The notes below the pieces were generated by a model. The model was not told the DNA's origin. It did not search any database and saw only the letters and a program-made list of their open reading frames with translations. 13,133 nt of DNA, from positions 1-13,133 of the forward strand of contig JBNJGH010000092.1 in NCBI GenBank assembly GCA_051747585.1, written 5' to 3'. Numbering within the stretch: position 1 is the first letter of the stretch; each line of letters begins with the position of its first letter. The translations under genes and the position numbers were made by a program. This DNA comes from Candidatus Rifleibacteriota bacterium. Its GTDB lineage: Bacteria > Muiribacteriota > Ozemobacteria > Ozemobacterales > Ozemobacteraceae. This document shows positions 1 to 13,112 of this stretch, piece after piece.

Positions 1-490
1 TCTTTGGATTGCTTTCTTTTATAAAATTATACAGGCTTTCGATTAATGACTTGATGTTTGTTTGTTCATTTTCAGGGCCGTTTAATAAATCCTGCCAGGA
101 GACTTTTCCTTCCCTGGCGACAATTTCGACTTCTTTGCCGTCAAAAAACTGATCGCCGATAAATTTTTGAAAAGCTTCAAATTTTTTTCTGTTTTTCCGG
201 TCGCTGTTTCTGTATTCAAGAACATCGTTAAAAAGGTTTTCGCCAGTGTGAATCTTTACGTTCTTTTCAGCTTCCTGCAATTCCAAAAGCTCTGTGGCTA
301 TAGAAAGTAGCGGCTGATTTTGTCTTAAAGATGCACTTGTTTTTCTGGAATTATTAGCACCAACAAAAATGTTAAGTTCTTTTATCGGGCCAATGTCATT
401 GAGAGGGAACTCTGGGGAGTCGGATAAAAATTCATCATTAAAATTCTTAATAGTTGAATAAAGGTTTAGATACTCTCGTTTTTCTGTCAC
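1..490 (-). CDS. Putative ABC/AAA_15 (OLD-like) P-loop ATPase-related protein; 3' end runs off the window; probably degenerate
   Basis: Not in the ORF track; translated by hand. The GTG at 490 overlaps the hsdS stop (GTGA), and the frame is open to position 1: MTEKREYLNLYSTIKNFNDEFLSDSPEFPLNDIGPIKELNIFVGANNSRKTS...IHTGENLFNDVLEYRNSDRKNRKKFEAFQKFIGDQFFDGKEVEIV...LYNFIKESNPK. LNIFVGANNSRKT resembles the beta-strand plus Walker A (GxNNSGK[ST]) of this family, with G replaced by R. Confidence 0.6.
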   Translation of the reverse strand, partial: MTEKREYLNLYSTIKNFNDEFLSDSPEFPLNDIGPIKELNIFVGANNSRKTSASLRQNQPLLSIATELLELQEAEKNVKIHTGENLFNDVLEYRNSDRKNRKKFEAFQKFIGDQFFDGKEVEIVAREGKVSWQDLLNGPENEQTNIKSLIESLYNFIKESNPK

Positions 491-1796
491 TTTTTCCTCT
501 TTTTTGCTTTTTTATTTGGGTTTTTAGACTCTGTTGCCACCTTTATCTCTTGCAGTAGCTCTGCGGCGGGTTGGTCGTTCGGGTTCTGGGGCACGAGTTC
601 GCCGCGGAAGGCTTTGGCTAAAATGCTGGCGGTAAGTGTTTCGACTCGTTTTCTGGCTTCTTCCAGTCTGGCTTCCATGGAATCGGCGAGTTTAAACAGG
701 GCTTCAACCCGTTTTACAATTTCTTCTTGTTCCTTGAGTGTAGGTAATGATAATGGGTATTTTTTTAGAGATTTTCCAGTAAGGTGTTTTATTGTTGTTC
801 CAGTGAAAAACTCATTTAGATTTTTTGATGTAGCATCTATATAAAGGTTGAAAACTAGCCAATCCGGCAAAACGTTATTATTTAATCTGACTCTATGCAA
901 TGCTTTTTGAAAGGTCAAGTTGTTGGGCCCACGTTTCCAAACAGCTGCTCGACCGGGCTCTCCGCCTTCACAGATAAAAACATCACCATTTTGCACAGAT
1001 AAAGTCTTTTGCTCTTTTTCATTAATTTGCAATTCTTTTAAATCTGATAAATCAAATGAAAACCATCTTATATTTGTATTACGCAAATATTGAACTGTTT
1101 TCCCAGTGTTTTTGTTCTTATCCAGCATTTTGCCAAGTCTTAGCTCAGCGCAATCTTCAAGATTTTTCTTATGCCAAGAGACATCTAATGAAGAATTCTG
1201 TTTTTCTCGCCAATCTTCTGTTAATTGGCCGGTAACTGCGGCGTTCAGCACTGACTGGCGGCAGAATCGAGGCGGGAGCGGGCCGCGTCGACATGGGTCA
1301 GAAGCCGGTCAAGCTTTGCTACAATTCGCTTTTGCTCGTTCAGCGGTGGAAGTATAAAAGGAGCGTTAGAAAATTTTGATTTGTTTATAATTGATAAAGT
1401 AGTTGCGGAAGCTTCTTTTTCTAGCCAACTCTTTAAGGTTAAACAGGCATAATAGCCAAATTTAGGAATAACACAATTTTCATAAAATTGTATTGAATTT
1501 ATTTGTTGGTTAGTTGCTGTTACTTGGCCAGCAATCCCAACTTTTCCCAGTGAACCTATACAAGTAACCATTATTGTATTTGGGGGCAATAAGCGCGCAA
1601 TTTTCCCACCTTTATTCGAAAGCCTTATAGTAGTTGAATTTATTATTGCGTTAATTCCTAAATCACCAGGTTTTACAAAAAGAATCGAATTTCCGTAATT
1701 TTCTTTGTTCTTTTTGGGAGGTGTATTACCGGTAGTAATTATCCCTAATTTTTTTAAAGTTGTCTCGACCCAGCCTTTTGGTAGATTTTTGGACAT
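487..1796 (-). pseudogene. hsdS: Type I R-M specificity subunit, split into ORFs 1245..1796 (TRD1 half) and 487..1251 (TRD2 half) by a frameshifting deletion near 1261
   Basis: HsdS motifs LPKGW, PPLNEQKRIVAKLD, RQSVLNAAVTGQLTEDWR and PTLKEQEEIVKRVE...SILAKAFRGELVPQNPNDQPAAELL. The start overlaps the hsdM stop (TAATG). The frame changes between RLDS and RQSVL. Confidence 0.92.
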
Positions 1797-3238: not shown

Positions 3239-6200
3239 TTATGCTTCTTTCTGCCACAAATTCCGGGTTATTTCAGTAATGACGGATTTTAATTTACCAT
3301 CAAACACCTTGTTGATTCTATTAAAACCGCCCTCAGATTTAAACTGAGCTTCATTAAAGGCTTCATCGTCAACTATGAATTCTGCCTTCATCTGGTTTGC
3401 AATTCTTTGTAACCATTTTTTCTGTGTCGGTTTCCATTCCTGTTTTTGCAGAATCCTTTCGATGGCTTGGTCTACTCTTTGTGAATAGGGTTTCAACGGA
3501 TCGCCAAGGGCTACTTTTCTTATATAGCCAATTATTCCGGCGGCAATTTCAGCGTTGGTTTGTTTTTGAAAAGCATTGCCGAGATAGGTTTCATTATAGC
3601 CCTGTTCATCGAGTATTAATTTAAGGGCTTTCAAATCTTTTCGGGTTAGATCAGAAGGCTTAGTCAGAACCGCCTTCAACGCAGCTACCTGATTTTTGTT
3701 CTCCTCTATGAACTGCTTGAAACCCTGAATATAATCTTCGGGCCGCTTTTGCCCTTTTCCGTAGCCGATGACTTCTTCCATGAACCTGTCTTCATCTTCA
3801 TTAATGGGAATAAATCTCCCGTTTCCTCCATCGAGCTTATCGATAAATCTGCCGATTCCCGGATGTTTTTCAAACCAGACTTTTACTTCTTCCAGAGAAG
3901 AATTTCGCAGCATCTCAAGGAATGCAATAAGCTTTAAGCCGGTTTTTTGCTCAAGAGCATCGCGAGAATCTTCCCCAAATCTTTTGCGTCTAAGCTTGGT
4001 AACAAACTGTTCCCGGGCAATCTCGCGAGACTCTTCAAGATCAATGGAAAGGATTTCCTGTTCCAGCTTGGCAAAGCTGATTTTCGGATTAACTACCACA
4101 GGCTTCATGTCTGTATGGTCCTGAAGGCTTTTGTAAATATCTACCGCGTCAAAAATTTTGAAAGTCTCTTTATTAAGTTCTTCACAGAGGCGCGTGGCGC
4201 GACCAAGCATCTGTTCGTAGAGTATTCTACTGTTAACCTTGCGCACAAAAACCAGATTGCAGATTTTGGGAACATCTATTCCGGTGGTTAGCAGATCAAC
4301 CGTAACCGCAATTGTCGGGAACTTTTCATTCTTGTAACGTCTTATAAGCTCTAAGGGTTTGTCGGCTGCGCCGGTTATTTTCATAATCATGTCATCGCTG
4401 ATGGAGCCGTGTTTACAATTCATGGCTTCCTTGAGATGAAGACACATGCTGTCGGCGTGTCGGTCATTCACACAAAAGATCAGGGTTTTCTCTTCGGTGT
4501 CGGGATTGAGGTGTGTCGCCAGCCATTCGGCAACCGCCTTGTTAAAACCGGGCGTCAGAACTGAATCATTATACTGGGAAACTTCGAAATCAAGTTGATC
4601 AGGCGTTGTTGCCTGTTCAACCTTGTTTTTCTTGATATTCAGAACCTTAACCCGCTCGCCTTCCTTCCAGCTGATGCCATTTTGTGATTGCCAGGTTTTC
4701 AAGCGCAACGGAGGCTCATGATCAATCAAAAAGCCGTCAATAACGGCCTCTCTATAAGAATAGGTATAAACCGGTTTGCCGAATATCTCGGATGTATGTA
4801 GAGCTGGTGTTGCTGTGAGGGCTATTTTGAAAGCATCAAAATAGTCAAGAACCCGGCGATACTTGGAAATATAGTCGAGACCATCACGAAATTGCAGTTC
4901 TGCGTCAGTCATGCCCTTATCGAGCAGGTAACCGCGGTGGCATTCATCAACAATAATGCAGTCAAACTGGTCGATTGATGGTTTGGTTGCTTCATCGATC
5001 GGATACAGAACCCGCCTCACCATGCTTTGCACAGTGGCAATCTGGACGCTGGTTTCAATATCAGGTTCACTGTCTTTTAATTCTTTTATTCCGAAAATCT
5101 CAGCGAACTTTCTCGTTCATTTGATCTCGGTGTCTTTGAAGGCATTGGCGGCTTGTTCGCCTAAAGAAGAACGGTCTACCAGAAAAAGTATTCGTCTGAA
5201 GCGCTGGGCTTTGAGTAGACGATAAACCAGGGCAATGCTGGTTTTGGTCTTTCCGGTTCCGGTTGCCATTGCTAACAGGGCAGCATCTTTGCCTGCAAGT
5301 ATTGCCTTTTCAACTTTTCTGATTGCTTTTTCCTGGTATTTTCGCAGCTGAAAATCAAATTTAAAATCAAGCTCGGCAAGTTTCTTTTCAGCTGCGGTAA
5401 AATCTATTCGGAAACGTTTGCGCAGGCCTTCAGGTGAATACCAGCCTTCAAGTGGCTTGCGAAGGTTTTGTGGTCTGCGAACATCACAGAACCAGATTCC
5501 GGAAAGTTGTTGGAATTGTCTTAAAAATGGTCTTCCGTTGGTGGCAAAGACAAATGGAATTTTATGTGAATTGTTTTCGGCGTTCACATTGGAAAATTCA
5601 GGTTTTTCCATTTCATCGGTGATCTGGAAATTTCTGGAATATCTTTTCGCCTGATCAATGGCAGAATAAACACTTCTGGTATTCTTTTTTGCTTCAATAA
5701 TTGCCAGGGGTTGAAGACCAACAAATAAAACGTAGTCAGCAGGGCCTGATCTGGTTGGCCATTCAGCAATTGCCTTGTTTTTACCTTTTTCCGGGCGGCT
5801 GCCGTTGGCGTATCTTAAATTTTCGCTATTCACTTCCCATCCGGCGTCACGCAGCTGCTGGTCAATGATTTTTCTGGTTTCTGCCTCGGAAAGCGCGATT
5901 TCATCAGAAACTTCATGGGCAGTCTGTATAGCTTCCTTTAAAGTGCTTTCCGGTTTGTTTTCACTTTCAAGACGTATCTTTTCAAGTTTCTGCTCGTAAG
6001 CCGTTTTTTCAGCTTCCAGCTCAGCTTCTTTTGTCAGCGCTTCCTGCTCGGTTTGTTGAAGTTGATGCCACAGCTTTTGTTTTTCCTGTTCAGCTTTGAA
6101 GCGCTTTGCTTTTTCTTCTTGCGAAAGTCTGGCGGTATTAACGATTTGTTGTTTTAGTTTTTCGTTTTCGCCGGCAATTTCTTCAAGTTGCTGTTTGTAT

Positions 6201-6640
6201 TTAGTTTCCAGGTTTTCAGGAGGGGAGGGCGGTTGAAACGGCGCGGCCCTGAATGTTTTATTTGCCAGCATACGATAAAAATACACAGACATAATGTGAG
6301 CGTAGCGAAGACTTTGTAGCGCTTCTCTAACTTCGCCTTTACCTTCGTGAGCCGCTTTGTTGCCGCTGTTTTTTACGGTATGGAACAGGAATTCCAGCTT
6401 TTGCGGTAAAATGTTCTGGTATTTGAGTTCCCGTAAAAGGTCGTTCTGGGAGGTTCTTTGATCAAAGTAAACTTTGAAATGAGATGCAATATTTTTGGTA
6501 ATGTTTTCGCCAAGAATTCGAAGTTTAACCAGCGCAGCTACAGGATCGGTTAAGCAGTGTTTTTCTGCCGAGATTGCCAGCTTAAAAAGAAACGGATCAA
6601 ACTCTTGTATAAATTCAAAATTCGGCGACTTAATATTCAC
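3239..6640 (-). pseudogene. hsdR: Type I R-M restriction subunit (EcoKI-like), interrupted by a single in-frame TGA at 5117-5119
   Basis: ORFs 5117..6640 and 3239..5032 are in the same frame; the junction reads DTEIK*TRKFAEIFGIKELKDSEPDIETSVQIATVQSMV. Nuclease motifs ADYVLF...IIEAKK...QAKRY; helicase motifs MATGTGKT, DECHRGY, TATP, LLTTGID and QMLGRATR. Would be 1133 codons if read through. Confidence 0.93.
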
Positions 6641-6707: not shown

Positions 6708-6792
6708 GTAATACATATTAGAGTTAGCAATTATACATTTGTTTGTAGAAACCGTTTCAAGAGATTGTAGGTTGCTTTGCTTGCAATCTTTT

Positions 6793-6864
6793 CGATACCG
6801 ATAGCAATTCCGACACCCGAATAAACTTCGAAATTCGCTATCGGCATCGGGGCTCGCTTTTCGA
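6793..6864. repeat. Intergenic inverted repeat built from ~6-nt periodic CGAT/ATCG units
   Basis: CGATACCGATAGC (6793-6805) pairs with GCTATCGGCATCG (6837-6849) at 12 of 13 positions; the mismatch is G-U on the minus strand. Degenerate hexamer units continue (cgatac cgatag caattc cgacac / tcgcta tcggca tcgggg). Confidence 0.6.
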
Positions 6865-8106
6865 TTAATTTATTTTTTTGTTTTTGATCAGGTTGATTAA
6901 CCTGATTACTACTGAATCAAAGTTTGTATTTGCATTGGTTATGGGTTCATCAGAATTGTTAATTGTGCATGAAAGGCAGTAGAAGTCTTTGCGGTCTTTT
7001 GTCTGCAAGACCCAGGTATAATTAAGAACTCCCGGTTCACTACCGCCTTTATAACCAACTGTATGCCAGTTCTTTTTGTCGACTATCCCATGGGCAGGGT
7101 TTATTTGAATAGCCTTATTGGCTCTTAAACTGTAAATGGTTTTGCAAAGATTGTCAGTGCTGATAAGCCATTCAAGTTTATTGATTTTAACAGGCTTTTC
7201 CCATTCCTGAATCATTTTTATGGTTTTGCCATCGAGTGTTATTTCTTTGTTTTCAAGGTCGCTAAGAATTTTTAATTTTTCCGGATATTCAGATTTAATA
7301 AATTTCTCGCCAAGCTCAGGATAAAAAAGTTTAAGTTTGAACATTTCGGCAGTGTTGAAAACCGGTTTGCTGCTTTCAGGAAAAACTTCATGCAATTTCT
7401 CTCTGCCTATCAGGTTGAATATGTGATCTGTAGCTGTATTATCGCTGATTGAAATCATTAGATTGGCCAGAGTTTGCAATGTAACATTTGAGTTGTCGGG
7501 CCAGTCCTGAAGAATGCCGCTTGGCAGTGACTTCCAGCTGCTTTTTAATTTTACTACTTCATCCCAGCTGTGCTTACCGGCAGAAATAGAGTCTACAAGG
7601 GCTTTTAATAGATATATTTTAAAAGCTGAGCCTATTGCCATCGGGGTATCAGAATTGATATCAATTAATTTTTCTTTGTTGTTGCGAATAAGGCAAACTG
7701 ATATTTTTCCCGGCATTTCTTTAAACAGTTTTAAAACATTTTCAAGATTATCTTTTGTTATCTCCGGTGCTCCGAACCATAACGTATTTATCTTGCCTGC
7801 CTTGTCGAAGCCTATTCTCGATGCAGCCTTGCCCTTTTCGAAATTGAGAGTGTAAGGCGAAGTTGAGGTATCTAAACTTTCAAAATTTCCCAGACTGTCT
7901 GTATAAATGGCGACTATTTCCAGAATTTTATTTGCCGGAACCTGATCCAGAAATGATTTGGCAAAAAGCTTTTCCAGATTTTCCAGCTTCATTTTCTCGT
8001 CGAAAATATTTTGATAGGCCTGCTCTGCTGTTTCAGCAGCAAACAGCTGACAATTAAACAGACTAAACACTAATACAACAACGACTAAAGAATATCTTTT
8101 TTTCAT
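6865..8106 (-). CDS. Secreted serine hydrolase, class A beta-lactamase-like (Beta-lactamase2 family, Cpe/LpqF-type), 413 aa
   Basis: Start moved from 8190 to the ATG at 8106 because of a GGAGG RBS (GGAGGCATAAAATG) and a signal peptide MKKRYSLVVVVLVFSLFNCQLFA. Motifs: SxxK (GSAFK), SDN (ISDNTATD) and a KTG-equivalent (YKGGSEPG). The N-terminal FAKSFLDQVP domain is typical of Cpe/LpqF-like proteins. Confidence 0.85.
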   Translation of the reverse strand: MKKRYSLVVVVLVFSLFNCQLFAAETAEQAYQNIFDEKMKLENLEKLFAKSFLDQVPANKILEIVAIYTDSLGNFESLDTSTSPYTLNFEKGKAASRIGFDKAGKINTLWFGAPEITKDNLENVLKLFKEMPGKISVCLIRNNKEKLIDINSDTPMAIGSAFKIYLLKALVDSISAGKHSWDEVVKLKSSWKSLPSGILQDWPDNSNVTLQTLANLMISISDNTATDHIFNLIGREKLHEVFPESSKPVFNTAEMFKLKLFYPELGEKFIKSEYPEKLKILSDLENKEITLDGKTIKMIQEWEKPVKINKLEWLISTDNLCKTIYSLRANKAIQINPAHGIVDKKNWHTVGYKGGSEPGVLNYTWVLQTKDRKDFYCLSCTINNSDEPITNANTNFDSVVIRLINLIKNKKIN

Positions 8107-8175
8107 TTTATGCCTCCGTTTGTAACTATTTAAAAATACTTTAGTTGCCCACAAAAACACAAGCCACAAAAAAGG

Positions 8176-8438
8176 AACCACAGAGATCACAAAGTTACAC
8201 AGAGAATCTTTTTCAGTCTTTGTTTCCTATCATAAACAAGCTCTTAGAAAAACACCCGTGTTTTTCTAAGAGCTTGTTTATGATAGGAAGGCCGGTCGGT
8301 TTCACCGTCCGGCTTCCCCAGACATTAGCAGGTTGTTGAAAAAACACTGGTGCTTTTTCAACAACCTGCTAATGTCTGGGGAACAAAGGCTGAAAAAGAT
8401 AAAAAAACAACTCCGTGCTCTCGGTGCACTCTGTGGTT
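8176..8438. repeat. Nested multi-hairpin intergenic element, copy 1 (REP/REPIN/MITE-like or structured RNA)
   Basis: Terminal 3x CAC(A/C/G)(G/A)AG heptamer arrays in inverted orientation (8179-8204 / 8411-8435). A 17-bp stem, 8206-8222 / 8384-8400, has one G-U. Inside: a perfect 32-bp IR (8224-8255 / 8258-8289), a GC hairpin (8291-8313) and a perfect 30-bp IR (8314-8343 / 8354-8383). Confidence 0.9.
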
Positions 8439-8528
8439 TAATATAACCATTTAACGAAAAGTTAAGAAACAAAAAAATGAGCAGATAAATTAGTTGCCAG
8501 CTATTGGGGATTTTGTTAAAAATAAGCC

Positions 8529-9911
8529 ATGAAAATTTTGCAATGCAAAACTATATTGCTGCTTGCTGTTATTTTTTCAATATTCAGCAGTTGCGCTTAT
8601 TCAGAAGAGCTGCTTTTCTGGAACTTCTGGGATCCGAAGTTTATTCTTCCGGTTATTGAAGAGTTCGAAAAACAGAACCCCGGAGTGACAATAAAAAATG
8701 AACAGATCACCTGGGGAAACGGCTTGGATAAAATAGTTGTGGCAATGGCAAATGGCAAAGCGCCTGATATTTGTGAAATGGGTTCTACCTGGATGGGCAA
8801 ATTCATGGGCGAGGGCGCTTTAATAGATGTTACCGAGAAATTTCAAGACCTTAAACCCGAATACATGATGTGGAAACCGGCGACCTGGCAGGGCCGACTT
8901 TATGGAATGCCCTGGCTTGCCGGGACAAGGGTGCTTTTTTATAATCGCGAACTTTTTGAAAAAGCCGGGCTCGATCCCGATAATCCTCCTGCTACCTGGC
9001 AGGAATTTCTCGATGCAGCCCAAAAAATCCATAATCCCGACGAGGGTACCTACGGTTTTGGTATGAATGCCGGTGAAGGGCACATTCTTTATAAAAAGTT
9101 CATGCCTTTTGTCTGGGGTAATGGCGGCAAAATTCTAGATGAAAACGGGAACTTTGTTTTCGATTCGCCGCAAACCAGAGAAGCTTTGAATTTTTATCTT
9201 GAATTAAAAAAATACAGCTATCGTGAAAAGCAGGATTTGCTCGATGAAGCTTTTAAAAAAGGCTCGCTGGGAATGACCATATCAGGCTCATGGAATTTTG
9301 CCAGATACCCGGTTGATGCCCCGAATCTTGATTTTTCAGTAGGGCTGATTCCTAAACCCACAAAAAATAAAGGGTATTCCGCCTCTTTTCTTGGCGGAGA
9401 AATCCTGGTTCTATTTAAAAGCTGTAAAAATCCAGATATGGCGGCCAAATTTGTCAGGTTTCTGGTCGAAGCAAAAAACACATTGCCAATTACCAAAGAA
9501 GCACTGGTAAGTTTCCCTGCAGCAACTGACAGCTTTAATGATGAATTCTTTACTACAGACCCGAGGTTGCAGGTTTTCATAGAGCAAATGAAAACGGGCG
9601 TACATCCGCCGGTTCATCCCTTGTGGATCGAGCTTGAAAAAATAATTAACAAAGCAGTCGAAAGTGCTATGTACGGGGCGAACATAGATGAGGTTTTTGC
9701 TCAGGCTGAAAAAGAATATCAGAGAGTAGAATCAAGAGCGAAGCAAAATAAATCGGTTCGTTTAAAAGAGCAGAAGCAAAATCGAGAGGGAAATTCAGTT
9801 TTTTCAAGCTCGACTCAAACAATGCTTTTAGTTCTTATAGCTATAGGTACAATAGTTAATGCGATTTTGTTGAGTTTTCTTTTGTTAGAGGTAAAAAAAA
9901 ACGCAAGTTGA
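8529..9911 (+). CDS. Carbohydrate ABC transporter substrate-binding protein (SBP family 1) with a C-terminal hydrophobic extension
   Basis: Signal peptide; FEKQNPGVTIK, APDICEMG, GRLYGMPW...LFYNRELFEKAGLDP..PPATWQEF; directly upstream of two permeases. Confidence 0.93.
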   Translation: MKILQCKTILLLAVIFSIFSSCAYSEELLFWNFWDPKFILPVIEEFEKQNPGVTIKNEQITWGNGLDKIVVAMANGKAPDICEMGSTWMGKFMGEGALIDVTEKFQDLKPEYMMWKPATWQGRLYGMPWLAGTRVLFYNRELFEKAGLDPDNPPATWQEFLDAAQKIHNPDEGTYGFGMNAGEGHILYKKFMPFVWGNGGKILDENGNFVFDSPQTREALNFYLELKKYSYREKQDLLDEAFKKGSLGMTISGSWNFARYPVDAPNLDFSVGLIPKPTKNKGYSASFLGGEILVLFKSCKNPDMAAKFVRFLVEAKNTLPITKEALVSFPAATDSFNDEFFTTDPRLQVFIEQMKTGVHPPVHPLWIELEKIINKAVESAMYGANIDEVFAQAEKEYQRVESRAKQNKSVRLKEQKQNREGNSVFSSSTQTMLLVLIAIGTIVNAILLSFLLLEVKKNAS

Positions 9912-10798
9912 TATTTAAACGGCGGCCGGTTGGCCCCGTTCGGCGTGCTCAACGCACCCTGTTGTTTCTTTCCCCCTGGCTTATCACTTTTGCAGTTTTC
10001 TGGCTCTATCCGCTGATTTTTTCGCTGATTCTAAGTTTTTGCGATTATAATGTATTTCACCCCGATGTTTTCAGATTTGTCGGTTTTAAAAATTATCTGA
10101 GGTTATTTTCCGATCCCGAATTTTATCAGGCCTTCAAAAACACTCTGATATTTGTTCTTGGAACAACTCCGGTTACAACTGTTCTGGCTTTGGCTCTGGC
10201 TTTACTGGTCAATTCGGTTGCGAAAGGCACCCAGTTTTTTCGTTCTGCCTTTTTTCTTCCCTCTATTATTTCTATAGTAGTAACAGCAACAATTTTTAAA
10301 TCTTTTTATTCACCGGTTGGCATGCTTAATCGAATTCTTGAATTTTTTTCTCTTCCCGGTCATGCCTGGCTGATAGAGAAAGGGCTGGCTTTGCCCGCCA
10401 TTATGTTTATGAATATCTGGGCTTATACCGGTTATTATATGGTTCTATATCTCGCTGCTCTGAAGGCTGTTCCCGGACAGCTTTATGAAGCCGCAGATGT
10501 AGATGGCGCTTCAGACTGGCAAAAGTTCAGATATATCACATTGCCTCAGATTCATTATATGACAATATTTATTTTAATTGTTAACAGCATAAGAACCTGG
10601 CAGGTTTTTCCCGAGATATTTACTCTTACCCGTGGTGGGCCTGTCGGCACAACCAATTCAATTGTTCATCTCCTTTATGAATCTGCATTCAGATACCATG
10701 AAATGGGCTATGCTTCGGCACTGGCTTATATTCTGCTTTTTATTATTATGATATTTTCAATTATACAGATGAAGATGTTGTCAGGGAGGAAAACATGA
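9908..10798 (+). CDS. Carbohydrate ABC transporter permease (MalF/UgpA-like)
   Basis: Multiple TM segments, FVGFKNY, EAA loop LYEAADVDGASDWQKFRYITLP, LTRGGP and MGYASA. The TTG start overlaps the upstream stop (TTGA). Confidence 0.94.
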   Translation: MIFKRRPVGPVRRAQRTLLFLSPWLITFAVFWLYPLIFSLILSFCDYNVFHPDVFRFVGFKNYLRLFSDPEFYQAFKNTLIFVLGTTPVTTVLALALALLVNSVAKGTQFFRSAFFLPSIISIVVTATIFKSFYSPVGMLNRILEFFSLPGHAWLIEKGLALPAIMFMNIWAYTGYYMVLYLAALKAVPGQLYEAADVDGASDWQKFRYITLPQIHYMTIFILIVNSIRTWQVFPEIFTLTRGGPVGTTNSIVHLLYESAFRYHEMGYASALAYILLFIIMIFSIIQMKMLSGRKT

Positions 10799-11610
10799 GG
10801 GGAAAAACCATTAAAGGCAAAAGCATTTTTCTTTTTCTCTGCGTTCTTTCGGCAACTTATTTGTATCCATGGCTTTATATGCTGGTGCGCTCATTCTTAC
10901 GCCATGAACCGGGGTTGTCTGACGGCAAAGGTTTGTTTACCCTGGAAAATTATCAGCTTGTGCTTGGAAACGCTGGGTTTCCGACTTACACTTTAAACAG
11001 TTTTCTTGTTTTAACTGCTGTGTTGGTAGCCAATGTCGTATTTTCGGTTATGGTCGGCTATGCTTTTGCCAGGTATAAATTTCCCTTTAGAAGGCCTTTA
11101 TTCTGGCTGGTTCTTTTAACTCTTATGGTACCCAAGCAGACCCTGATGATACCTCTGCTGGATCTAATGATAGGCCTTGGCTTTCATAATACTCTATGGG
11201 CTCTTATTCTGCCTTTTTGCGTAGATGGGTTCAATCTCTTTTTAATGAAGCAATATATCGAAGGCTTGCCCCCTGACCTTGAAGAGGCTGCCCGGGTCGA
11301 TGGCTACGGCGAAATCGGTATTTTAATTCACGTAATTTTTCCTCTTTCGCGACCTGCAATTGCTGTGTTGGTAATTAATACCGCGATTATCACCTGGAAT
11401 TCATTTCTTTTTCCATTAATATTGACCGATACCGCAGATGTAAGAACTTTGCCCGTAGCTTTGGCAATGTTTTCTCAAGGTCCTTATGCTACTGACTGGG
11501 GCGCTCTGATGGCCGGCGCAAGTGTCAGCTCGTTACCAATAATTGCTCTTTTCTGGATTTTTCAGAAAGAAATTATTGAAGGAATAACCAGCGGCGCCCT
11601 CAAAGAATAA
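10795..11610 (+). CDS. Carbohydrate ABC transporter permease (MalG/UgpE-like)
   Basis: GYAFARYKFP, EAA loop LEEAARVDG, WNSFLFPLI, QKEIIEGITSGALKE; ATGA overlap with the upstream gene. Confidence 0.94.
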   Translation: MRGKTIKGKSIFLFLCVLSATYLYPWLYMLVRSFLRHEPGLSDGKGLFTLENYQLVLGNAGFPTYTLNSFLVLTAVLVANVVFSVMVGYAFARYKFPFRRPLFWLVLLTLMVPKQTLMIPLLDLMIGLGFHNTLWALILPFCVDGFNLFLMKQYIEGLPPDLEEAARVDGYGEIGILIHVIFPLSRPAIAVLVINTAIITWNSFLFPLILTDTADVRTLPVALAMFSQGPYATDWGALMAGASVSSLPIIALFWIFQKEIIEGITSGALKE

Positions 11611-11693
11611 AAATCAGCAATTCTCAGTCAGCTATTATTAGCTGGTTACCAAAAGTTTTGCTTTTATTTCTTTCTGTAAAATATCGAAATTTC

Positions 11694-11901
11694 ACCACCG
11701 AGATCACAGAGCGCACCGAGACGTTTTTTAATCTTTTTCAGCCTTTGTTCACAATATTACTCAGCATACATAAAAACATTAATGCTTTTATGTATGCTGA
11801 ATAATATTATGAAACCCGGCCGGTGAAACCGCCGGCTGATTGTCCAAAGGACAATCAACGGCTGAAAAAGATTCTCTGTGATTCTCTGAGGGCTCTGTGG
11901 T
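11694..11901. repeat. Nested multi-hairpin intergenic element, copy 2 (inverted relative to copy 1)
   Basis: Heptamer arrays at 11696-11720 / 11874-11899; stem AATCTTTTTCAGCC/GGCTGAAAAAGATT (11730-11743 / 11860-11873); a 66-nt palindrome at 11748-11813 with 3 mismatches; GC hairpin CCGGCCGGTGAAACCGCCGG (11816-11835); 9-bp hairpin TGATTGTCC-AAA-GGACAATCA (11837-11857). Confidence 0.9.
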
Positions 11902-11916
11902 TTAAGAAAATGTACA

Positions 11917-11966: not shown

Positions 11967-12941
11967 ATGCTGCGATTTTATAAAAGTTTCAGGTTTATAA
12001 GTCTTTTGCTGGTTCTGACAATGCTGGTTGCTCCGGTAGTTCAGGCCGCAGAGCTTTCTTTGTTCGACCGTTTAAAGCTTAAAACAGAACAAAAAATCGA
12101 GCAGGTTCAGCAACGTGACTGGTGGATAACCAAAGCTGTGGGCAAGGCGGTAGGTTTTGTTGCCGGTAAAGCCGGTGGTGGAATCGGTGCCGCTGTAGGC
12201 TATTTGATAGGTGCGGGAATGGGCGGCCCGGTGGTTGCAGGCATGGGTGCCATGATCGGTTTCCGCATAGGTGATATTGTTACACAAATATTTGCCGAGG
12301 CCGTTAGTAATGTGGTAACCCAATGGAAGCTGAAAGATAAACGGGAAGTAAATCTAACTACCGTAACTGAGGCGCTGAGGGTGGTTGATGCAGGAGCTTT
12401 AACTGCAGAATCGGTTGGTGCAGTTGTAGGTGATCTTGTTGGTGGCACAATGGGCGCAGCAGCCGGAATTGCTTTTTTTGCGGGGTGCGGCCCTGTGGCT
12501 TTGCCGATTCTGGGAACTTTTACCTCGGCCTATATTGGTAGTAAGATCGGCACATCAATATTTAGTGGAATTGGTAGTTGGATAGGGAGTAAATCTTTGA
12601 AAAAAGGTTATGAAGCCTATGCAGGAAGAGAACCCAAGATAGCTTCAGAAGACAGCGATATTTCTGAAACAGATTTTAACAATGATTTCAGGAATGAGTC
12701 TGAAGAAGAAGCGCAAATTTCAGAAAGCGAAGCAGATAGCAAAGATAAATCGATTTCTGATAAAAATGTTAATACCTCTATTTCAGATGCCCGCCAGGAA
12801 TATGAAAAGGCATATAAAGCCTATACCGAGGCAATGATTTCAGGCGCTGACTCAGAAGAAGCAACCAGAAAACTTCAGGTATACAGAGAAGCCCTGGAAA
12901 GATATAGAGCGATTATTTCTACCGTTCAAAGTAACAGATAA
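11967..12941 (+). CDS. Exported hypothetical protein with two glycine-zipper-like hydrophobic regions, an acidic linker and a C-terminal Tyr/Ala-rich helical domain
   Basis: 324 aa with RBS and promoter; signal peptide ending VVQA; GxxxG arrays (AVGKAVGFVAGKAGGGIGAAVG...; SVGAVVGDLVGGTMGAAAG...); D/E/S-rich linker; ARQEYEKAYKAYTEAM...YREALERY. Confidence 0.85.
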   Translation: MLRFYKSFRFISLLLVLTMLVAPVVQAAELSLFDRLKLKTEQKIEQVQQRDWWITKAVGKAVGFVAGKAGGGIGAAVGYLIGAGMGGPVVAGMGAMIGFRIGDIVTQIFAEAVSNVVTQWKLKDKREVNLTTVTEALRVVDAGALTAESVGAVVGDLVGGTMGAAAGIAFFAGCGPVALPILGTFTSAYIGSKIGTSIFSGIGSWIGSKSLKKGYEAYAGREPKIASEDSDISETDFNNDFRNESEEEAQISESEADSKDKSISDKNVNTSISDARQEYEKAYKAYTEAMISGADSEEATRKLQVYREALERYRAIISTVQSNR

Positions 12942-13112
12942 TTTTTTCTTGAGCTTTGAACAATAGATTTCTCTAATCATTAATTATCCATTTGTTTGTT
13001 GAAATACCTGAGATTACCGGATGAATAACAACTACTCTCCAATACTCTGGATAAATCGACAGGTTTTGCCGATATTAAATATAAGAGTAATTCCAAGGAG
13101 GGTGTATCGAGT

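Follow-up and report, generated by a model that had tools for sequence, protein, structure and literature searches.

The stretch at positions 8176-8438 of the DNA analysed here (the window: 13,133 nucleotides of contig JBNJGH010000092.1, from a Candidatus Rifleibacteriota bacterium) is a truncated member of a MITE family, to which it was assigned through the common core. It is probably the end-less core of a MITE of about 369 bp. An ISNCY-type DDE transposase acting in trans likely moves this MITE, and template switching during DNA replication likely keeps its hairpin arms matched and flips them.

Parts of the focal stretch and the complete element

As single-stranded DNA the focal stretch folds with -101.4 kcal/mol, compared to -27.0 ± 3.8 for 200 shuffles (z = -19.7). 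Its parts, together with the flanking remnant, are as follows.

8131-8175, plus strand: eroded left subterminal remnant of the MITE, without TIR (anchored alignment, p = 0.0075, 400 shuffles)
8176-8205, plus strand: left heptamer array of three phased CACAGAG-type words, read from the sequence and similar in type to the arrays on both sides of GxxExxY genes in relatives
8206-8223, plus strand: left arm of the outer stem S1, pairing with 8383-8400 over 18 bp with one T-G mismatch
8224-8289, no strand assigned: long hairpin H3a, with perfect 32-bp arms (8224-8255 and 8258-8289) and the conserved tip of the family
8291-8313, no strand assigned: GC hairpin H2, which forms the axis at the centre of the core
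8314-8383, no strand assigned: long 34-bp hairpin H3b, with arms 8314-8347 and 8350-8383
8383-8400, plus strand: right arm of the outer stem S1
8401-8438, plus strand: A-run and right heptamer array (inverted CTCTGTG-type words, about 8410-8438)

The earlier note on this DNA had placed all of these parts of 8176-8438 where we find them, and the strength of the fold agrees with its description. The 17-bp enclosing stem that it reported exists and measures 18 bp with the one mismatch. The two inverted repeats that it called perfect have the 32 and 30 bp it gave them, except that the second does not stop there: 30 perfect pairs in H3b are followed by one A/G mismatch, which corresponds to the A-C tip mismatch of the family, and then by 3 more pairs.

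On the right side of the focal copy (8439-8520), the sequence is in register with the MITE by eye and its anchored alignment is not significant (p = 0.27, 400 shuffles). The local scores of the two flanks (23.5 on the left and 27.5 on the right) both lie below the 99th percentiles of the null (28 and 30), and no TIR was found at either end of 8176-8438. The neighbours are a divergent beta-lactamase-like gene (PF13354) on one side and a sugar ABC transporter operon on the other; contigs of the public runs X1 and X2 cover the copy in part, together with its flanks.

The family was searched with an anchor on the hairpin tip in the source assembly (330 contigs, 93.55% complete), and all family counts rest on this one fragmented assembly. 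The anchor returned 112 long hairpins at 110 loci, with 102 complete cores and 8 that were cut by contig ends or degraded, so that the copies are far more than the two visible in the window. In 100 of the cores, 141-145 bp in length, S1 encloses a 9-bp hairpin (H1), H2 and a single long hairpin (H3). Only 2 of 102 carry two long hairpins (190 and 195 bp), namely the focal copy and the one at C52:1328; the form with two long arms, which had been taken as the type, is thus an exception. Relative to their flanks, 62 of the 100 single-arm cores are oriented long-first and 38 short-first.

The heptamer arrays, where the boundaries had been drawn before, are not the ends of the element, since full copies extend about 80 bp further on the left and 75 bp on the right. 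These copies are about 369 bp long, their similarity reaching about 110 bp past the core on each side up to TIRs of about 16 bp, CAGCAATTCTCGGTCA. We collected 237 termini of the MITE (129 left and 108 right), from which 56 left-right pairs could be formed, 41 of them spanning 367-373 bp. Target duplications of 9 bp were exact in 17 of the 56 pairs and had at most one mismatch in 27, against a mean of 0.55 and a maximum of 4 in shuffled pairings; the 27 duplicated targets have a GC content of 34% and no fixed sequence. Between ends lacking a duplication (94 left by 59 right) there were 12 further exact 9-mers, compared to 0.16 in the control, 10 of them on different contigs and the other two being left and right ends 9 bp apart. 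The TIRs and the 9-bp target duplications make the element a MITE, and its movement is recorded in such full copies and in a contig of a related strain from which one copy is missing. The proposal of a non-autonomous mobile family is therefore borne out by 110 loci, TIRs, 9-bp duplications, an empty site and an IS of the cognate type in relatives.

Some end pairs do not conform to this picture. Among pairs around young cores, 14 of 31 have neither a duplication nor a partner elsewhere, and no reciprocal duplications were found for the end pairs lacking one, the tandem case aside. At G000:C49:23317-23326 and C64:10503-10512, exactly 9 bp separate a left from a right MITE end, the two facing outward, which looks like the insertion of one copy next to another. 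Two long end pairs (2152 and 2514 bp) were considered as ISs and rejected, being separate remnants. At five loci (G000:C13:13862, C78:11681-12007, C126:8948-9308, C133:2751 and C18:4828) we observed a variant of the MITE that has a different heptamer-like array (CGCAAAG-type) and purine-rich filler instead of part of the core.

Thirteen of the 102 copies are bare: both MITE flanks are missing, and similarity stops at the heptamer arrays or close to them. Another 14 have a flank on one side only. Three of the 13, the focal copy included, keep remnants of the left flank at p < 0.01, and no consistent repeat flanks the bare copies. On a weakly resolved tree the bare copies are scattered among the embedded ones (10 changes, compared to 10.3 when shuffled), the tree comprising 60 inner units and omitting 38 of the 46 young copies, the two double-arm copies and the contig-cut copies. 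This scatter fits either repeated loss of the ends or repeated escape.

The second copy of the window, noticed before at 11694-11901 in reverse orientation, is a member of the family with a standard core and has the following parts.

11606-11614, plus strand: candidate 9-bp target site adjoining the TIR, the matching duplicate of which is largely gone with the left end
11615-11631, plus strand: right TIR, read inward
11632-11730, minus strand: right subterminal region, right heptamer array and A-run
11731-11872, minus strand: standard 142-bp core with S1, H1 (11837-11857), H2 and H3 (11748-11813)
11873-11902, minus strand: left heptamer array; the left 80 bp and the left TIR are absent

Its left flank shows no significant alignment with that of the MITE (p = 0.57, anchored alignment), and its long arm has 33 bp with 3 mismatches. 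The 9-bp hairpin H1 had been seen correctly and counted as one of the arms; it is no reduced long arm and represents the norm of the family, present in 100 of 102 cores. The copy lies just past the last gene of the sugar ABC transporter operon. The comparison of filled and empty sites that had been proposed could be made here, as one contig of run X1 joins 11611 to 11907 without copy 2 (40 letters on the short side).

Other features of the window were recorded on their own account. Another dispersed repeat has its ends at 6729-6766 and 12982-13004, and its motif is also found directly beside MITE ends, at C69, C18 and C146; a contig of run X2 joins 6729 to 11615. The gene at 11967-12941 (plus strand) encodes a glycine-rich protein of 324 aa, likely exported and without Pfam match, and differs from an X1 contig at 59 of 485 bases, whereas the neighbouring genes are far closer. 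A type I restriction-modification locus occupies 3239-6640 and 487-1796 (both minus strand), in which hsdR is split into ORFs of 507 and 597 aa and hsdS into ORFs of 183 and 254 aa, by frameshifts that are either real or from the assembly.

The probable mobilising insertion sequence and the heptamer arrays

The 16-mer of the TIR was found in 22 of 50 genomes of the same family and in 0 of 36 others, and reversed-pattern controls gave 0. Several named TIR-carrying records among the matches listed (80 of at least 119) bear the name Candidatus Riflebacteria. One genome of the same family, G022, holds a complete IS of 1564 bp with both TIRs, which match those of the MITE almost letter for letter, and an ORF of 438 aa. 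The encoded protein matches PF01609 with 27.2 bits, over the cut-off, and no NCBIfam model at cut-off. Related transposases are followed on their 3' side by this TIR in G006, where the distance from the C-terminus is about 100 bp, in the congener G003 (a remnant) and in L113; the G006 transposase fragment, used as query, matched in 6 of 87 genomes. Among 18 records matched by the G022 protein, three ISNCY-annotated plasmid proteins are 33-36% identical to it over more than 90% of the length; ISNCY-annotated homologues include WP_212661733.1 (Acaryochloris) and WP_234711115.1 (Nostoc). Two of the three ISNCY-annotated homologues have CAGCAATT ends, and exact 9-bp duplications surround the Acaryochloris copy (L275) and the relatives' elements L046 and L050. 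The IS of G022 itself has no target duplication. This ISNCY-annotated group may correspond to the ISfinder subgroup ISMae2.

Judging from the matching ends, the MITE is likely mobilised in trans by an ISNCY-type DDE transposase of relatives, and the mobiliser would be the 438-aa enzyme of the IS with the same TIRs in a genome of the same family. No cognate transposase was found in the source assembly, which counts against our explanation; at about 94% completeness, the family may be silent now or the gene unassembled. Of the enzyme types that had been suggested earlier, the assembly has one RAYT, with other repeats, and no GxxExxY gene was found in it. The candidates of the genome were rejected in turn. 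Its IS1380- and IS1182-type transposases lack the TIRs of the MITE, the RAYT (on C196) is followed at its 3' end by repeats unrelated to the element, while the region 5' of it is off the contig, and a protein on C307 is 22% identical to the G022 enzyme and is without these TIRs. The C307 locus (G000:C307:183-2680, L273) is a two-gene element with a 308-aa ORF and a transposase-like ORF of 511 aa, in which no TIRs were found.

Other genomes contain elements of 119-301 bp that share these TIRs and are in most cases bordered by 9-bp duplications, whereas their palindromic interiors are unrelated to the present one. The same-TIR elements recorded are L065, L084, L090, L092, L111, L123, L129, L130, L279, L280, L283, L285-L288 and L290. 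One IS thus appears to spawn MITEs that collect different repeats. At L031:1480-2017 (G006:C41), a transposase with matching TIR is interrupted by sequence resembling a group II intron 3' end.

The second component of the element is the heptamer arrays. GxxExxY genes (PF13366) occur in 29 of 87 genomes of the phylum, with 0 matches in the source assembly or its five congeners. At 6 of 27 GxxExxY loci in relatives, inverted CACAGAG-type pairs stand on both sides of the gene, compared to 3 of 98 control windows with a heptamer pair on either strand; most of the other loci have related heptamer words by eye. The arrays of the focal copy and of the family are likewise inverted, phased heptamers. 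The left subterminal region of the MITE contains, by eye, a second array of the GxxExxY-flank class, and congener G002 has a similar array behind the TIR. A genome of another family (G042, L228-L251) has 16 copies of heptamer pairs, mostly without core, and two GxxExxY genes. The arrays of the MITE resemble those around GxxExxY genes, and a three-hairpin cassette stands where the gene would be; as to origin, the MITE would have taken up GxxExxY-type arrays with the cassette replacing the gene, and other MITEs of the same bacterial family with these TIRs hold other palindromic cargo.

Evolution of the hairpin arms and competing readings

We surveyed the 21-bp variable arm in the 100 single-arm copies. 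It occurs in 61 distinct sequences forming 27 clusters, with a mean identity of 52% among distinct arms, and still only 31 of 2100 base pairs are mismatched, 3-4 Watson-Crick pair types being present at every column. Changes were then counted in a young group of 46 copies that share the commonest core, 41 of which have a length of 142. H3 showed 22 two-sided and 6 one-sided changes in the 46 copies (14 and 6 distinct), whereas S1 showed 0 two-sided and 25 one-sided changes in the 41 copies (0 and 13 distinct among all 46); the distinct changes of H3 and S1 differ with p = 5e-5 (Fisher). In the same 41 copies, H1 had 5 two-sided and 3 one-sided changes and H2 had 1 and 11. The tip mismatch is A-C in 49 copies, G-T in 31, A-T in 13 and G-C in 6, four states which indicate that it undergoes inversion or repair.

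According to PMC8604942, template switching between the arms of inverted repeats produces arm homogenisation and spacer inversion and is favoured by long arms and short spacers. By analogy, the arms of H3 are likely kept matched, and the tip flipped, by template switching during DNA replication. A mutation in one 33-bp hairpin arm would usually be copied to the other and the tip would often be inverted, so that the arms drift and yet stay paired, while the short outer stem is left uncorrected. Whole cores have also changed orientation: a tree of 34 flanks requires 5 such changes, and supported branches force no fewer than 2 of them. For template switching, arms of only 13 bp separated by a 116-bp spacer would be a stretch, and recombination between copies may cause part of the core inversion.

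Recombination probably also accounts for the focal copy. Between its H3a arm and that of copy C1:62571 there are 4 differences in 21 positions, its H3b arm differs from every single-arm copy at 8 or more of 21, and the two arms differ from each other at 9 positions (hand count). Since H3a is nearer to the arm of another locus than to its own second arm, a crossover in H2 is favoured over an internal duplication. The focal copy with two long arms is therefore likely a rare end-less variant, the recombinant of a long-first and a short-first copy that would have crossed over in H2 and then lost its outer ends by erosion.

We weighed this explanation against a reading, unlikely in our estimate, in which the array-bounded inner unit (about 210 bp, or 263 bp in the focal copy) is itself a mobile, gene-less GxxExxY satellite. 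Its enzyme would cut the arrays or the tip, the arm would be re-made by fold-back synthesis, and the MITE would only have captured and amplified the unit. The heptamer pairs on both sides of 6 of 27 GxxExxY loci are in its favour, as are the 13 bare and 14 one-sided copies that end at or near the arrays; bare copies are also expected from an independently mobile unit, and they count to that extent against the preferred explanation. A further point in its favour is that the invariant positions of the tip show one difference in 1200 sites while the arms differ at 26%. Core-centred conversion would also be expected to leave the pattern seen in 24 full young copies, in which diversity is 0.037 in the core and 0.147 and 0.117 in the outer flanks, that is 3-4 times lower in the core. 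This gradient may reflect conversion between copies or assembler collapse of the repeat, and is also expected from the latter. Against the satellite speak the lack of a GxxExxY gene in the assembly and five congeners, the scatter of the bare copies on the tree with left remnants in 3 of 13, the lack of a consistent repeat around them and the fact that the core was not found outside the source species. In that respect, a BLAST search with copy 2 in 60 relatives returned a single match, of 35 bp, the tip motif had 0 matches in 86 genomes of the phylum and 0 in viral contigs, and the element was absent from all 11 metagenome matches, of which the longest prolonged the arm by 13 bp. The H2 motif matched in 11 other genomes, and none of the 15 places inspected lay in the scaffold of the element. 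A two-level version of this reading, which we hold equally doubtful, would combine a gene-less satellite of a GxxExxY system, its hairpin cut at the conserved tip and rebuilt by fold-back, with core-centred conversion and riding in an ISNCY-type MITE; the ends of ISNCY-type ISs would then collect different palindromic satellites in different Riflebacteria.

Selection on a structured RNA or an expression signal (terminator, RNase III site or mRNA stabiliser), with the paired changes being compensatory, is very unlikely. It would agree with the 96 of 102 cores that overlap no crude ORF of at least 100 aa and with the conservation of the scaffold (tip, S1 and H2). This conservation extends even to bare copies, which neutral decay alone does not explain and which counts against the preferred explanation. 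Genome-wide in the source assembly, moreover, 28 of the 35 copies in same-strand gene gaps point against the genes, the left end facing the start of the downstream gene (p = 0.0005, crude ORF calls). The structured RNA proposed earlier is nonetheless not supported. Rfam searches gave only sub-threshold miRNA-like hairpin matches for the window copy and none at gathering score for four other loci, no terminator-like site was found in 8000-8600, and the gap types of the copies match the background. Mismatches of G-T (11) and A-C (10) are about equally frequent, so that there is no wobble preference, against selection on the RNA strand, and both orientations are seen for the tip as well as for the core. 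Copies that are nearly identical already have more two-sided than one-sided changes, a pace that stepwise compensation would not reach, and S1 has no two-sided changes.

A further reading, highly improbable, regards the perfect symmetry and the flips as largely short-read assembly artefacts of a 100-copy palindromic repeat. In its favour, 79 of 660 contig ends lie within 200 nt of an element motif, and artefacts would suit the young end pairs without duplication (14 of 31), which our explanation leaves unexplained, as well as the lower diversity of the centre. In contrast, one-sided variants persist in S1 and H2 of the same copies, and symmetry is found in copies with a unique arm too, for which there is no other copy to collapse with. 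The 13-bp arms of S1 are shorter than usual assembly words, so that both orientations would need real junctions, and contigs of independent runs hold the element together with opposite-strand joints at the stems.

Two more ideas were discarded. The arms do not look like captured guides, since 24 representative arms had no exact match outside masked elements; there were 5 matches with one mismatch and 14 with two, where shuffled arms gave 0 and 5, and the commonest arm was the source of 13 of the matches. For foreign DNA this comparison consisted of a plasmid search with the window copy, which gave no match. A degenerate Ssn-related motif, taken from PMC11893778, had no match in the window copies or in 11 other MITE interiors.

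Relation to known elements and significance

The earlier note had not recognised a described family. This holds for the sequence family, which is new within the searches made, and does not hold for the kind, a MITE of a DDE insertion sequence; no description of the element was found in the literature searched, a scope that left aside subscription journals, supplements and ISfinder. Type II MITEs such as QMITE2 (Coxiella burnetii) and Chunjie (Geobacter) are reviewed in PMC10969869, and in the text available from it they share with our element a size below 500 bp, TIRs, target duplications, intergenic position, strong folding, similarity to the IS limited to the ends and many truncated, REP-like copies without TIRs. 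The difference lies in the interior, where GxxExxY-type arrays nest a four-way junction with a hypervariable, self-matched long arm and a flipping centre, and such an interior is absent from the descriptions in that text. The ISNCY-annotated IS group has in common with the MITE the CAGCAATT-type ends, the 9-bp duplications and, on the side of the enzyme, a DDE_Tnp_1 transposase, whereas the MITE is non-coding and shares only the ends.

REPINs and their RAYTs, as described in PMC3337134, are also hundreds of non-autonomous hairpin elements whose spacer varies yet keeps pairing. Our element differs in having TIRs and in making 9-bp duplications, as is usual where a DDE enzyme acts, and the repeats 3' of the C196 RAYT are unrelated to it, with no REP doublet matching them; the variable paired spacer is REPIN-like behaviour, not membership. 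GxxExxY heptamer genes share the inverted, phased CACAGAG/CTCTGTG words of about 9-10 nt in the same inward arrangement; unlike them, the element has a hairpin cassette at the place of the gene, is nested in IS ends and comes from an assembly without the gene. The template switching treated in PMC8604942 likewise involves arm homogenisation and spacer inversion, while the 116-bp core inversion exceeds the 2-5-bp spacer inversions given there, and here the events are countable over 100 paralogous copies.

As a MITE, the element is an ordinary kind of genomic parasite, lineage-specific and tied to a specific IS group through near-identical ends. It links the heptamer arrays of the poorly described GxxExxY genes to IS-driven amplification, and if the inner unit were independently mobile it would be a concrete substrate on which the GxxExxY nuclease family could be tested. 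The 100 paralogous hairpins provide a countable bacterial record of arm homogenisation and centre inversion, with the outer stem as an uncorrected internal control, and they carry the warning that an RNA structure should not be deduced from covariation in repeats of this sort.
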